64,000 bases of DNA. It comes from Escherichia phage anhysbys. Shown piece by piece: positions 23,196 through 24,783 of this stretch; the stretch's first letter is position 1; each line of letters starts with the position of its first letter. A program made the translations under genes and the position numbers. The notes under the pieces are model-generated. The model was not told the DNA's origin and did not search any database. It worked only from the letters and a program-made list of their open reading frames with translations. The stretch lies in sequence record NC_052656.1; one strand, 5' to 3'.

Positions 23196-23229
23196 ACTAT
23201 TGACAAACGTATCCTTCATATGTTAGGAT
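23196..23229 (+). promoter_or_regulatory. promoter with conserved ACTATTGACAA -35 element
   Basis: TTGACA at 23200-23205, -10-like TTAGGA/TAGGAT 17-18 nt downstream; same 11-mer at 23782 and 24750. Confidence 0.5.
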
Positions 23230-23241
23230 ACGTTCATCAAG

Positions 23242-23433
23242 TGTGGTAACAGGGTCGTTGACTTTTGTTAAGAGGGGCTTGCACTGCGGTAGTGTTAGAG
23301 ACTACTTCTTCAGAGGTTAGCTACCAAAGAGGAAAAGGAATAGTCTCGGCTCAAGAACTTTTACGCTGAAAGTTGGGCTTGGTCTTAGAGAATGTAGCGG
23401 TTCTCTACAATCGTCAGCGTCTCTGTTACCACA
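23242..23433 (+). repeat. 11-bp perfect inverted repeat (TGTGGTAACAG / CTGTTACCACA) bracketing a 170-nt leader
   Basis: 23242-23252 is the exact reverse complement of 23423-23433; the right arm ends 5 nt before tRNA-Met. Confidence 0.6.
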
Positions 23434-23438
23434 TTTAT

Positions 23439-23510
23439 GGCCCTGTAGCTCAATGGGAGAGCTGTCGGCTCATAACCGATAGGTAGCTGGATCGAAACCA
23501 GCCAGGGCCA
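23439..23510 (+). tRNA. tRNA-Met (anticodon CAT)
   Basis: hand-folded cloverleaf: acceptor GGCCCTG/CAGGGCC, anticodon loop CTCATAA, T-arm GCTGG-ATCGAAA-CCAGC, encoded CCA. Confidence 0.8.
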
Positions 23511-23515
23511 CCAAC

Positions 23516-23587
23516 GTCTTTATGGTGTAATGGATAGCACAGGAGTCTTCTAAACTCTTAGTCAAGGTTCGATTCCTTGTAAAGACA
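23516..23587 (+). tRNA. tRNA-Arg (anticodon TCT)
   Basis: acceptor GTCTTTA/TAAAGAC, anticodon loop CTTCTAA, T-arm CAAGG-TTCGATT-CCTTG, encoded CCA. Confidence 0.8.
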
Positions 23588-23592
23588 CCAGA

Positions 23593-23775
23593 ACATTTTA
23601 ACATGAATTAGCTCAAGTGATTTGAACCCACTACTGATCATGGTGGCAGAGAATGAGGCAAGTATGTCAGACATTATAAACAAAGGCCACGGTTATATTA
23701 GAAGACATAAATGCTCGAAGAGCACCGTTCGTTGAGAACGGGGGTTGGTGGAGTCACCATTCATGGTAAAATGTT
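23593..23775 (+). repeat. 17-bp inverted repeat (one mismatch) bracketing a 149-nt structured segment
   Basis: AACATTTTAACATGAAT (23593-23609) vs reverse complement of 23759-23775; interior has hairpin CCGTTC-GTTGA-GAACGG; no cloverleaf found. Confidence 0.55.
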
Positions 23776-23781
23776 TTAAAA

Positions 23782-23815
23782 ACTATTGACAACTAACATT
23801 ATTTTATGTTAGATT
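23782..23815 (+). promoter_or_regulatory. promoter with conserved ACTATTGACAA -35 element
   Basis: TTGACA at 23786-23791, -10-like TTAGAT/TAGATT 17-18 nt downstream; precedes tRNA-Ser. Confidence 0.5.
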
Positions 23816-23823
23816 ATAAGTAT

Positions 23824-23911
23824 GGAAGGGCAAATCGACGTGGCGACGAAAACGGTCTTGAAAACCGCCGAGCTTGAAAGAGCCTTGGGAGTTCGACTCT
23901 CCCTCCTTCCG
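23824..23911 (+). tRNA. tRNA-Ser (anticodon TGA), type II with long variable arm
   Basis: acceptor GGAAGGG/TCCTTCC, anticodon arm CGGTCTTGAAAACCG as in E. coli tRNA-Ser(UGA), T-arm GGGAG-TTCGACT-CTCCC, discriminator G, CCA; D-arm atypical. Confidence 0.65.
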
Positions 23912-23919
23912 CCAGATTA

Positions 23920-24002
23920 GGTAGATTGGTGAAATGGTAGCCACAACAGTTTGCTAAACTGTAGTCGGAAACGGCGTGTAGGTTCGAGTCCTACATCTAC
24001 CG
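23920..24002 (+). tRNA. tRNA-Ser (anticodon GCT), type II
   Basis: acceptor GGTAGAT/ATCTACC, anticodon arm ACAGT-TTGCTAA-ACTGT, T-arm GTAGG-TTCGAGT-CCTAC, CCA. Confidence 0.75.
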
Positions 24003-24135
24003 CCAAGTTCTTTTTAATATAGCTTACTTTAATAGAGTAAACTTTCGGCAGATGGCCTCCACCATCTTACCGATAACTCATAGTTAGTGGTGTGAACACT
24101 GGCTATTTTAAAAAGAATTTAAATATTAGTATTTA

Positions 24136-24220
24136 GGTGAGTTAATTCCGTAGGGGTAGCGGGGCAGACTGTAAATCTGTTATCATTGCGATTCGGGTGG
24201 TTCGACTCCATCACTCACCA
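24136..24220 (+). tRNA. tRNA-Tyr (anticodon GTA), type II
   Basis: acceptor GGTGAGT/ACTCACC, anticodon region CAGACTGTAAATCTG identical to E. coli tRNA-Tyr, T-loop TTCGACT, CCA. Confidence 0.8.
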
Positions 24221-24229
24221 CCAAATTAA

Positions 24230-24312
24230 GATGAGTTGGCTGAATGGTTTAAGCGGCGGACTGTTAATCCGTGTTCGAAAGAACGATATAGGTTCAAATC
24301 CTATACTCATCG
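24230..24312 (+). tRNA. tRNA-Asn (anticodon GTT) with atypical 15-nt variable arm
   Basis: acceptor GATGAGT/ACTCATC; anticodon arm GCGGA-CTGTTAA-TCCGT identical to E. coli tRNA-Asn; extra hairpin GTTC-GAAA-GAAC before T-arm ATAGG-TTCAAAT-CCTAT; CCA. Confidence 0.6.
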
Positions 24313-24322
24313 CCAGAATTAT

Positions 24323-24399
24323 GGACTTGTAGAGTTAAGGTAAACCCCCAGTCGCCAAGAGGCTTCTGGAATTGCAGGTATCGAATCCTGCCGAGTCCC
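24323..24399 (+). ncRNA. tRNA-like element / pseudo-tRNA (no canonical anticodon arm)
   Basis: acceptor-like pairing GGACTTG/CGAGTCC and T-arm-like GCAGG-TATCGAAT-CCTGC (8-nt loop), but central region is one long hairpin; no encoded CCA. Confidence 0.25.
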
Positions 24400-24405
24400 A
24401 GCTTT

Positions 24406-24477
24406 GCTCCTATAGTATAATGGCTATTACAACGGTTTTGTAATCCGTGGATCTCTGTTCGATTCAGAGTGGGAGCA
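24406..24477 (+). tRNA. tRNA-Thr (anticodon TGT)
   Basis: acceptor GCTCCTA/TGGGAGC, anticodon loop TTTGTAA (T-T at the stem base), T-arm CTCTG-TTCGATT-CAGAG, CCA. Confidence 0.75.
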
Positions 24478-24749
24478 CCAACACAACATTAAGGGCACTG
24501 TGATTGATCGTCGTATCCTGTGCACAAGGTCTGTTCGAAAGACAGTGTTCTTAGTATTGTGTTGATCACACAAAGAGTCACCTGAAACTTGACCGGAGTA
24601 GGGTTGGATGGGGCAAAAGAAGAAGCGGCTCTCCCATCGACAGCAACGAAGAATAATATTTGACTTTGGTTTTGTATTATTTTAAGTTAGCTTACCGAAC
24701 GTAGGGCTAGTCACCCAATGGGATACTCGTCACTGTCCCACTCAATAAA

Positions 24750-24783
24750 ACTATTGACAACCAATAGTAAAATGTAGTATAGT
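24750..24783 (+). promoter_or_regulatory. promoter with conserved ACTATTGACAA -35 element
   Basis: TTGACA at 24754-24759, TATAGT 18 nt downstream; precedes tRNA-Gly. Confidence 0.55.

Follow-up and report, generated by a model that had tools for sequence, protein, structure and literature searches.

Organization of the locus

The window analyzed here (the whole 64,000-nucleotide stretch of Escherichia phage anhysbys, NC_052656.1) belongs to the phAPEC8-like Phapecoctavirus and matches Mt1B1_P17 at 99%. Its + strand carries a block of tRNA genes and structured segments, the latter called spacer RNAs below, together with three promoter-like sequences (P1, P2 and P3) and a closing terminator. 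The features of this block, and two related predicted promoters located further downstream, are as follows (coordinates are those of the window).

23196..23229, + strand: predicted promoter P1 (11-mer 23196-23206; -35 at 23200-23205; 18-nt spacer; TGn at 23221-23223; -10 TAGGAT at 23224-23229)
23206-23215 / 23225-23234, + strand: inverted repeat in P1, AACGTATCCT / AGGATACGTT, spanning the spacer and the -10
23239..23436, + strand: spacer RNA 1, about 200 nt, multi-branched, with a 26-bp closing stem
23439..23590, + strand: tRNA-Met(CAT) and tRNA-Arg(TCT), the first tRNAs after P1
23591..23776, + strand: spacer RNA 2, about 186 nt, with a 17-bp AU-rich closing stem
23782..23815, + strand: predicted promoter P2 (11-mer 23782-23792; -35 at 23786-23791; 18-nt spacer; TGn at 23807-23809; -10 TAGATT at 23810-23815)
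23824-23910, + strand: tRNA-Ser(TGA)-like gene, called by tRNAscan in ASO2A and scoring 37 bits against the Rfam tRNA-Sec model
23920..24005, + strand: tRNA-Ser(GCT)
24005..24120, + strand: spacer RNA 3, about 115 nt, four-helix and cloverleaf-like, with an 18-bp closing stem
24136-24220, + strand: tRNA-Tyr(GTA)-like gene
24230-24315, + strand: tRNA-Asn
24323-24398, + strand: uncalled tRNA-like segment
24406-24480, + strand: tRNA-Thr
24750..24783, + strand: predicted promoter P3 (11-mer 24750-24760; -35 at 24754-24759; 18-nt spacer; -10 TATAGT at 24778-24783; no TGn)
24795..25361, + strand: tRNA-Gly, tRNA-Gln, tRNA-Pro, tRNA-Ile and tRNA-Met, downstream of P3
24869-24963, + strand: spacer RNA 5, a hairpin between tRNA-Gly and tRNA-Gln (z = -5.7)
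25205-25282, + strand: tRNA-like pseudogene between tRNA-Ile and tRNA-Met
25477..25501, + strand: intrinsic terminator (AGCCTCC-TTATT-GGAGGCT, then TTTTTG) closing the tRNA/ncRNA block
28934..28965, + strand: related predicted promoter in the terminase/portal gap (TTGTTGACAAAA, 17-nt spacer, TATTAT)
30626..30657, + strand: related predicted promoter in the gap between the portal gene and the next gene (CTATTGACAAAA, 17-nt spacer, TAGACT)

The terminator at 25477 is annotated as such in ASO2A, and no convincing + strand terminator was found from P1 to that position. No + strand ORF of at least 40 aa crosses any of the three boxes, which places the promoters in non-coding DNA, and the end of each promoter lies 6–12 nt upstream of the 5′ end of a structured RNA or tRNA.

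The repeated 11-mer and the three predicted promoters

An exact search of the whole window for ACTATTGACAA returned three copies, all on the + strand, at the positions given in the preliminary description (23196, 23782 and 24750); this is far above the mean of 0.04 copies expected, and none of 100 dinucleotide shuffles reached three. Each copy contains TTGACA (at 23200, 23786 and 24754), the hexamer proposed there as the -35 element, and 18 nt past it lie TAGGAT (P1), TAGATT (P2) and TATAGT (P3), giving 10, 10 and 11 matches respectively to the 12 positions of the sigma-70 consensus. The -10-like sequences had previously been given as 7-mers at 17–18 nt, which correspond to these hexamers with one base added. 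With 18 nt the spacing is the longest within the permitted 16–18 nt, and suboptimal for sigma-70. The extended -10 is present in P1 and P2 (TG at 23221-23222 and 23807-23808) and missing from P3. An A/T-rich run precedes the -35 in all three cases: TAAATAA directly 5′ of P1, AAAAA at -9 to -5 from the -35 of P2, and TAAAA upstream in P3. Transcription is predicted to start at about A23236 for P1, at about 23820-23822 for P2 (2–4 nt ahead of the tRNA-Ser(TGA)-like gene) and at about 24788-24790 for P3 (5–7 nt ahead of tRNA-Gly). The discriminators are AT-rich (ACGTTCA, ATAAGTA and AAAGATG, respectively), and none of the three promoters has the GC-rich discriminator of stringently controlled host rRNA/tRNA promoters.

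A match to the promoter consensus is by itself no proof of function, since generic promoter-like matches between 20 and 34 kb are no commoner than in shuffled sequence (34 observed versus 33.3); the support for promoter function comes from the exact repetition of the 11-mer together with conservation in relatives. Related boxes had also been reported at 28934 and 30626. Both exist and precede structural genes, with their two strings interchanged in the preliminary description, and a positional ortholog of the 28934 promoter is kept in five relatives.

Conservation in related phages

Positional orthologs of the promoters were compared from up to five lineages; the records of Mt1B1_P17, phAPEC8_ev052, ASO2A and phi92 carry no annotation of the P1, P2 or P3 sites. 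Among the P2 orthologs (eight distinct sequences from three lineages) TTGACA, the 18-nt spacing, TGT, TAGATT and the A-run are all invariant. Among those of P3 (nine distinct sequences from five lineages) TTGACA, the 18-nt spacing and the A-run are invariant and the -10 reads TA[T/G]AGT; phi92-type orthologs carry a TGn, unlike P3 in the window. In the phiWec clade the P1 ortholog retains TTGACA, TGt and TAAGAT; its spacer is 17 nt long and AGTA replaces ACTA. Both genera keep 41 nt between the -35 and tRNA-Gly, whereas the linker, spacer and flanks of the P2 and P3 orthologs vary, the flanks being unalignable between genera. Judged from these alignments, invariant hexamers and spacing amid diverged flanks are the classical footprint of a sigma-70 promoter. 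The earlier proposal of recognition by host sigma-70 is thus upheld as to architecture.

The ACTA that precedes the -35 in the window behaves differently from the rest of the promoter, as it becomes agta, ggtg, ctac, cctc or ttac in orthologous promoters. A genome-wide scan of Mt1B1_P17 gave about 40 intergenic TTGACA promoters with a common A-tract at -10 to -4. The 37 promoters other than P1–P3 show an excess of A between -10 and -4 relative to the -35 (0.3–0.6 bits per position) and hold only about 0–0.2 bits at positions -3 to -1; the A at -4 is the end of the general A-tract. CTA stands just before TTGACA in 7 of the 40 promoters compared with about one expected from single-column frequencies, an over-representation that may reflect a weak preference. 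The fourth copy of the 11-mer in the genome lies ahead of an ordinary small early gene with a spacer of 17 nt, and early small-gene promoters have a 16-nt spacer.

Proposed transcription of the block

Three host-type promoters, each with a ACTATTGACAA box as its -35 region, probably stand in tandem here and are recognized by E. coli RNA polymerase carrying sigma-70. In each of them an A-rich tract about 5–10 nt 5′ of the -35 would be followed by TTGACA without mismatch, a constant spacer of 18 nt and a -10 of the form TAnnnT. The A-rich tract resembles the proximal UP-element subsite, at roughly -46 to -38, touched by the alpha C-terminal domain, a role that is putative here, and the TGn of P1 and P2 would offset the long spacer and the imperfect -10 hexamer. 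The identity of the full 11-mer would then be a lineage-specific state of an unconstrained 3-nt linker (CTA) and not a recognition element; it may have arisen by common descent, by copying of a promoter cassette or by chance.

We infer from the sequence both initiation by RNA polymerase at P1–P3 and the start points given above. The three promoters would fire in series on one + strand block and, with presumed read-through between units, yield nested precursors. The P1 precursor would contain structured RNA 1, tRNA-Met, tRNA-Arg and structured RNA 2; that of P2 the tRNA-Ser(TGA)-like RNA, tRNA-Ser, structured RNA 3, the tRNA-Tyr-like RNA, tRNA-Asn and tRNA-Thr; and that of P3 tRNA-Gly, tRNA-Gln, tRNA-Pro, tRNA-Ile and tRNA-Met. 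Initiation is predicted 2–7 nt before the first structured RNA of each unit and would therefore leave very short leaders for RNase P or other processing. Expression probably begins with infection, because no phage factor would be needed; the literature search turned up neither TSS nor RNA-seq data on Phapecoctavirus, Justusliebigvirus or rV5.

Alternative readings

The preliminary description took the shared "extended -35" as the mark of one regulatory class, possibly recognized with a phage co-factor. On such a reading ACTA-TTGACAA would define a separate class in which sigma-70 and a phage-encoded co-factor specifically control the tRNA units. It could draw on the fact that the exact 11-mer and the unusual 18-nt spacing are common to all three tRNA promoters and set them apart from the 16-nt early small-gene promoters, as well as on the excess of CTA before TTGACA. 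The comparison with relatives speaks against it: orthologous promoters exchange ACTA and keep the rest, so that a co-factor site would not be retained where the promoter is, and the fourth 11-mer copy fronts an ordinary gene. The three tRNA promoters also differ among themselves in the extended -10 and in the -10 sequence. No MotA-box-like element substitutes for the -35, which is already a perfect sigma-70 hexamer, and thus an appropriator-type factor would be superfluous. Beside the block, no gene for a sigma or co-factor stands out: sequence searches of PHROGs, Pfam, NCBIfam and PDB matched none of the five neighboring small proteins to a sigma, anti-sigma or DNA-binding family, and the label "RNA polymerase sigma factor RpoS" given in SKA64 to a 98-aa ORF (25569-25865) is noise (15.5 bits, the cutoff being 378.7). 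Because ACTA is not conserved, positions -3 to -1 are uninformative genome-wide and no co-factor or sigma gene was found beside the block, we see no special extended -35 class here and regard its existence as very unlikely.

The boxes might instead be structural or processing signals, that is, hairpins (RNase III or RNase E sites, 3′-end protectors or attenuators) that resemble promoters by chance, the block being one precursor from upstream of 23190. P1 is the strongest case. Its inverted repeat is widened to the whole promoter by outer TTGA/TCAA pairing; as + strand RNA the hairpin has -15.5 kcal/mol (z = -5.2), and the phiWec181 ortholog (-17.4 kcal/mol, z = -5.4) differs by two double compensatory changes and one G-U. 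The conservation of P1 could therefore partly reflect RNA or DNA structure. Perfect inverted repeats at the three promoters measure 10, 7 and 7 bp; inverted repeats are enriched around the promoters of the genome (mean best stem 5.2 versus 4.5–4.6; stems of at least 7 bp at 6 promoters versus 1.8 expected), and strong hairpins (z about -4.4) flank the tRNA-Gly promoter of phi92 and of the locus L014 on both sides. However, the P2 and P3 hairpins are weak in the window (z = -1.5 and -1.0) and absent in the loci L018 and L015, and across lineages the stems vary in sequence, register and strength whereas the hexamers and their spacing do not. The need for a hairpin would leave unexplained the invariant TTGACA in a loop or arm and the TGnTAnnnT, and hairpin and promoter functions are in any case compatible. 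We hold this reading to be unlikely. Even less probable is that the boxes are non-functional leftovers, either chance TTGACA repeats or remnants of duplicated segments in AT-rich intergenic DNA. TTGACA does occur 66 times in the window, and promoter-like matches are as frequent as in shuffled sequence, but three exact 11-mers exceed the chance expectation by far, all three are confined to the scarce non-coding gaps, where they lie ahead of RNA genes on the strand that is transcribed, and their hexamers and spacing survive in lineages whose surroundings cannot be aligned.

Two further ideas about the inverted repeats were considered. A functional hairpin around every tRNA promoter was downgraded to a feature of P1 and of some orthologs, since only that of P1 is strong and conserved by folding, the orthologs being inconsistent. 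An antisense terminator (hairpin and T-run on the minus strand) is not favored, since the G-U wobbles work only on the + strand and there are no converging minus-strand genes.

Comparison with known promoters

Host-type promoters at P1–P3 have their closest described counterpart in rV5, for which 33 sigma-70-type promoters were predicted genome-wide, 11 of them with an extended -10 (Kropinski et al., 2013, Virol J 10:76, PMC3606486). They include an in silico "PtRNA" promoter of the form TTGACA-N17-TAATAT; the rV5 genome is also reported to have, elsewhere, an Srd-like anti-sigma homolog (PMC3606486). A promoter of the PtRNA type is also present in the rV5-like locus L019. rV5 and the present phage are large virulent coliphages of the same broad group, with predicted TTGACA-N15-18-TAnnnT promoters over early, tRNA and structural regions, a TGn in about one third of them and a promoter directly 5′ of the tRNA cluster. 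For rV5 only one tRNA promoter is listed, with 17 nt between its hexamers and lacking a common 11-mer; in the present phage three are predicted in tandem, with 18-nt spacers and within the cluster. Similar in silico promoters are thus already listed for rV5, and what the present comparison of sequences documents is the conservation of those described here across genera. The rV5-type late motif TGGTAAAATA is not enriched in the window (12 matches versus 9 expected).

Strong sigma-70 promoters include those with UP elements of the E. coli rrn P1 type and those with a TGn. The promoters described here share with them an A-tract centered about 5–10 nt 5′ of the -35 (its UP role is putative), a consensus -35 and, where present, a TGn that would offset a weak -10 or long spacer. 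They differ from host rRNA/tRNA promoters, which combine a GC-rich discriminator with stringent control, and because their discriminators are AT-rich, host-like growth-rate control is not expected. In T4, middle promoters (MotA/AsiA) have a MotA box at -30 in place of the -35, and late promoters (gp55/gp33) have only TATAAATA at -10. These too are phage promoters, and they are read by a modified host polymerase, which is what the co-factor idea alludes to; by contrast, the boxes of the present block have a perfect -35 and lack TATAAATA. A special factor for the tRNA-unit promoters need not be invoked. For annotation, three predicted host-type promoters conserved across genera, together with one terminator, delimit the tRNA units of phAPEC8/phi92-like therapeutic coliphages.

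Structured RNAs encoded with the tRNAs

The three units had been described as tRNA operons, a label that is incomplete, as the P1–P3 units appear also to encode structured non-tRNA RNAs supported by covariation, a side finding of the analysis. Spacer RNA 1 extends from 3 nt past the predicted P1 start to 2 nt short of tRNA-Met. Its single-sequence fold has z = -5.6, and an alignment of four sequences contains 70 pairs, 10 of them with double-sided compensation; it was detected only in Phapecoctavirus. Spacer RNA 2 (z = -4.0) has 61 pairs, three of them compensatory, among four sequences, and is followed by TTTTAAAAA, which also serves as the A-tract of P2.

Spacer RNA 3 (fold z = -4.1), directly 5′ of the tRNA-Tyr-like gene, could be aligned over 14 sequences from Phapecoctavirus, Justusliebigvirus, Vequintavirinae and T5-like Tequintavirus. 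The alignment has 40 pairs with 99.5% of cells paired; double-sided change occurs in 23 cells compared with 8.4 ± 2.7 in shuffles, none of 500 shuffles reaching 23, and when the register was slid such cells numbered 0 in five of six registers and 2 at +2. The RNA was found in 178 phage records, and a pattern scan of IMG/VR added no further contigs. Rfam covariance models, searched over 21000-32000, gave no match at E ≤ 1 for spacers 1–5, only tRNA matches and sub-threshold noise.

It is possible, and we suggest it tentatively, that P1–P3 express a set of novel structured ncRNAs that alternate with the tRNAs. The four-helix RNA of about 115 nt 5′ of tRNA-Tyr would be a module spread or kept across at least three phage groups (Stephanstirmvirinae, Vequintavirinae and T5-like Demerecviridae), and the 5′ end of the RNA of about 200 nt would be set by P1. 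P1 itself might be dual-coded, its hairpin in transcripts from upstream serving to insulate or process read-through.

The tRNA cluster of T4 yields co-transcribed stable "species 1 and 2" RNAs (rnaC and rnaD), whose ends are paired in the manner of an acceptor stem. Both cases concern a tRNA array read by the host polymerase (as predicted here), with multi-gene precursors carrying small structured RNAs. The RNAs of the present block are different and more numerous, spacer RNA 3 being tightly tied to tRNA-Tyr across several phage families, and no sequence similarity to T4-like phages was found outside the tRNAs themselves. Non-tRNA RNAs that are conserved and covary have been little explored in the tRNA arrays of phages, and as a class they bear comparison with the species 1 and 2 RNAs; the RNA linked to tRNA-Tyr is a tractable and widespread case in which to look for candidate roles in tRNA processing, stability or defense evasion.

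Further along the P2 unit, the segment 24316-24405, which contains the uncalled tRNA-like sequence, shows 96.5–98.9% identity in four of the five loci compared, two of them from Justusliebigvirus (arall and PHB05); in the fifth, phi92, a 32-nt stretch alone matches, at 84%.

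Setting and architecture of the candidate promoters

The window derives from a phAPEC8-like myovirus (genus Phapecoctavirus, subfamily Stephanstirmvirinae) and shows 99% identity to ECO340P1 and Mt1B1_P17 across 22-27 kb of the window. Its tRNA block comprises 10 tRNAs called by ARAGORN and two further tRNA-like genes called by other tools, is flanked by a divergent small-gene region and the terminase/portal module, and ends in a single strong intrinsic terminator; no other convincing + strand terminator was found inside it. The first of its three candidate promoters (P1, P2 and P3) lies downstream of an ORF with its stop codon at 23190-23192.

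23196-25500, + strand, ORF-free tRNA block holding the promoter boxes
25477-25495, + strand, intrinsic terminator
~A23236 (P1), 23820-23822 (P2) and 24788-24790 (P3), + strand, predicted transcription starts

Three exact copies of ACTATTGACAA, each on the + strand, occur in the window (23196, 23782 and 24750), against a mean of 0.04 in dinucleotide shuffles of the window, which bears out the preliminary description of a recurring 11-mer with promoter-like hexamers. All three include a perfect TTGACA, with TAGGAT, TAGATT or TATAGT 18 nt further on; these latter hexamers had been described, although as 7-mers carrying one additional base. Related boxes do exist at 28934 and 30626, but their strings had been interchanged (28934 carries TTGTTGACAAAA and 30626 CTATTGACAAAA). 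P1 and P2 also possess a TG one base 5' of the hexamer (an extended -10). A consensus match by itself is no evidence of function, since a generic promoter scan gave 34 matches in the real sequence and 33.3 in shuffled sequence. The predicted starts would lie 2-7 nt 5' of the structured RNA that heads each unit, a probable positional coupling. No experimental start-site mapping was found in a literature search.

Conservation in related phages

The loci compared belong to the phiWec clade (L002, L010, L018; about 80-89% identity), to Justusliebigvirus (phi92, arall, PHB05, PD06 and IMG/VR contigs; L003-L005, L011-L013) and to two more distant IMG/VR contigs (L014 and L015). P2 orthologs precede tRNA-Ser-TGA in each of the three lineages sampled there, and P3 orthologs precede tRNA-Gly in each of five. 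In ungapped comparison of these orthologs, TTGACA and the 18-nt spacing never change, while the -10 is fixed as TAGATT at P2 and varies at one position at P3 (TA[T/G]AGT); the TGT 5' of the P2 hexamer is invariant among P2 orthologs, and an A-run is kept 5-9 nt 5' of the -35. Sequence differences fall in the spacer, in the linker of 3-4 nt and in the flanks, which are unalignable between genera. In both genera, 41 nt separate the -35 from tRNA-Gly. Among the relatives compared, P1 was found in Phapecoctavirus only; its phiWec ortholog keeps TTGACA and TGt, with the -10 improved to TAAGAT and a 17-nt spacer. At the level of sequence, this pattern is the classic phylogenetic footprint expected of sigma-70 promoters, and the -35, spacing and -10 kept in orthologs uphold the proposal that promoters of the sigma-70 type serve the tRNA block. 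The portal gene and the structural gene after it likewise have TTGACA promoters ahead of them, conserved in relatives.

A special promoter class or host sigma-70

The shared 11-mer had been read as an extended -35 defining one regulatory class, possibly with a phage co-factor; the comparisons with orthologs and across the Mt1B1_P17 genome do not support that part of the proposal. In orthologs, ACTA is replaced by agta, ggtg, ctac, cctc, gccc or ttac, and CTA is, on this comparison, dispensable for them. A scan of 150 kb of Mt1B1_P17 recognised ~40 intergenic TTGACA promoters and four copies of the 11-mer, three at the tRNA promoters and one before an ordinary small gene (17-nt spacer). The 37 non-tRNA promoters favour A between -10 and -4 relative to the hexamer (0.3-0.6 bits), with about 0-0.2 bits at positions -3 to -1; the 11-mer thus resolves into four elements: the A that ends a general A-tract, a CTA linker under no constraint, the TTGACA hexamer and an A that is commonly preferred. 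CTA nevertheless precedes TTGACA in 7 of 40 promoters, against about 1 predicted by column frequencies, so there may be a weak preference, or the cassettes may share ancestry. Regarding the co-factor, no gene for one was found among the five small proteins flanking the block, which belong to unknown-function or spanin families only.

25569-25865, + strand, 98-aa ORF directly after the tRNA terminator

This ORF is labelled 'RNA polymerase sigma factor RpoS' in phage SKA64, 'terminase small subunit' in phAPEC8_ev052 and hypothetical in others. No family support was found for any of these labels, and the RpoS assignment was rejected (15.5 bits against a 378.7-bit cutoff). The ORF has a KRGRGRP motif at its N-terminus and its own predicted promoter at 25519 (TTGACT-17-TAAGAT, with TGn).

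Host sigma-70 holoenzyme would bind the -35 and -10 (plus TGn), probably assisted by alpha-CTD contacts with the A-tract; the three tandem promoters would feed one read-through block ending at 25495 and yield nested precursors, from which host RNase P and other nucleases would release the tRNAs and the small structured RNAs. The recurrence of the complete 11-mer would then be a lineage-specific state of no regulatory meaning. This reading of P1-P3, including the nested precursors and the non-regulatory identity of the 11-mer, is considered likely. Promoters ahead of both tRNA and structural genes match what was described for rV5, with 33 predicted sigma-70-type promoters across its genome, 11 of them with an extended -10, and a 'PtRNA' promoter on its list (PMC3606486). 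The latter was also seen in the rV5-like locus L019. Unlike host tRNA promoters under stringent control, P1-P3 have AT-rich discriminators. They belong to an already known promoter type; the structured RNAs that they would drive merit separate study.

Hairpins at the promoter sites

P1, P2 and P3 each overlap a perfect inverted repeat, of 10, 7 and 7 bp respectively.

23206-23234, + strand, 10-bp inverted repeat AACGTATCCT/AGGATACGTT over the P1 spacer and -10

Over the set of 40 promoters, best stems have a mean length of 5.2 bp, compared with 4.5-4.6 in controls (0 of 300 reach 5.2), and stems of at least 7 bp occur in 6 of 40 against 1.8 expected. The P1 hairpin folds at -15.5 kcal/mol (z = -5.2) in the window and at -17.4 kcal/mol (z = -5.4) in phiWec181, with two compensatory pairs and one G-U. 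Those of P2 and P3 are weak in the window (z = -1.5 and -1.0), and folding of P3 orthologs gave a strong hairpin in phi92 and L014 and none in L018 and L015; only the P1 hairpin is therefore taken as a real feature, and hairpins as a general promoter feature were downgraded. Since the phiWec clade keeps the pairing through compensatory and G-U changes, the P1 repeat suggests a + strand RNA hairpin, 14 nt past the upstream stop codon, which may act on transcripts arriving from that ORF.

Structured RNAs between the tRNAs

23239-23436, + strand, spacer 1, ~200-nt multi-branched RNA (fold z = -5.6)
23591-23776, + strand, spacer 2 (z = -4.0; 3 compensated pairs)
24005-24120, + strand, spacer 3, ~115-nt four-helix cloverleaf-like RNA with an 18-bp closing stem
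24481-24562, + strand, long hairpin, first 82 nt of the 24481-24752 spacer
24869-24963, + strand, spacer 5, long hairpin (z = -5.7)
L019:1502-1627, L020:2499-2620, L026:398-521 and L027:398-520, counterparts of spacer 3

Spacer 3 is the best-supported structured RNA of the block. Phage records containing it number 178, among them rV5-like Vequintavirus, Certrevirus and T5-like Tequintavirus, and it invariably lies directly 5' of tRNA-Tyr, with which it behaves as a single module. Its covariation spans Phapecoctavirus, Justusliebigvirus, Vequintavirinae and T5-like Tequintavirus: in 14 aligned sequences 99.5% of 548 cells are paired, and double-sided changes affect 23 cells, a number attained in none of 500 shuffles (8.4+-2.7). 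Slid registers gave no double-sided cells in five of six cases and 2 at +2. Invariant G-U pairs point to the + strand RNA as its form. Spacer 1 is specific to Phapecoctavirus and begins 3 nt past the predicted P1 start; four sequences from three lineages of the genus share 70 pairs, 10 of them double-sided compensated, and an invariant 26-bp closing stem. No ORFs were found in 23591-23776, 24481-24562 or 24869-24963, and an Rfam search of the spacers gave no family match at E<=1. The nearest known parallel is offered by the tRNA cluster of T4, which carries the stable species 1 and 2 RNAs.

Tools were inconsistent on three + strand tRNA-like genes: 23824-23910 (tRNA-Ser(TGA)-like, with a degenerate D-arm and a sub-threshold match to the tRNA-Sec model), 24136-24220 (tRNA-Tyr(GTA), labelled 'pseudo' in RefSeq) and 25205-25282 (canonical T-arm, but an 'anticodon' loop of 4 nt). 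Additionally, the segment 24316-24405 (+ strand) is conserved above most neighbouring sequence among five loci compared, with 96.5-98.9% identity in four, including Justusliebigvirus arall and PHB05, and a match of only 32 nt (84%) in phi92. It folds as a tRNA-like cloverleaf with a 7-bp acceptor stem, a T-arm with an 8-nt loop and an aberrant anticodon region; neither ARAGORN nor Rfam called it, and some relatives have a small CDS annotated over it.

Outside the window, the minus strand of Mt1B1_P17 at 1.7-12.3 kb holds ~20 small early-type genes with one promoter each (A-tract, TTGACA, 16-nt spacer, TAAGAT or TAAACT) and a conserved box at the start site, CAC(A/G)TAGGGCGG(C/G)AAT, whose GTAGGGCG string also opens the P3 transcript and tRNA-Gly. 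At 13045-13858 of the same genome, a strong promoter (TTGACA-17-TATACT) leads into ~800 bp without an annotated gene, a possible further non-coding RNA locus.
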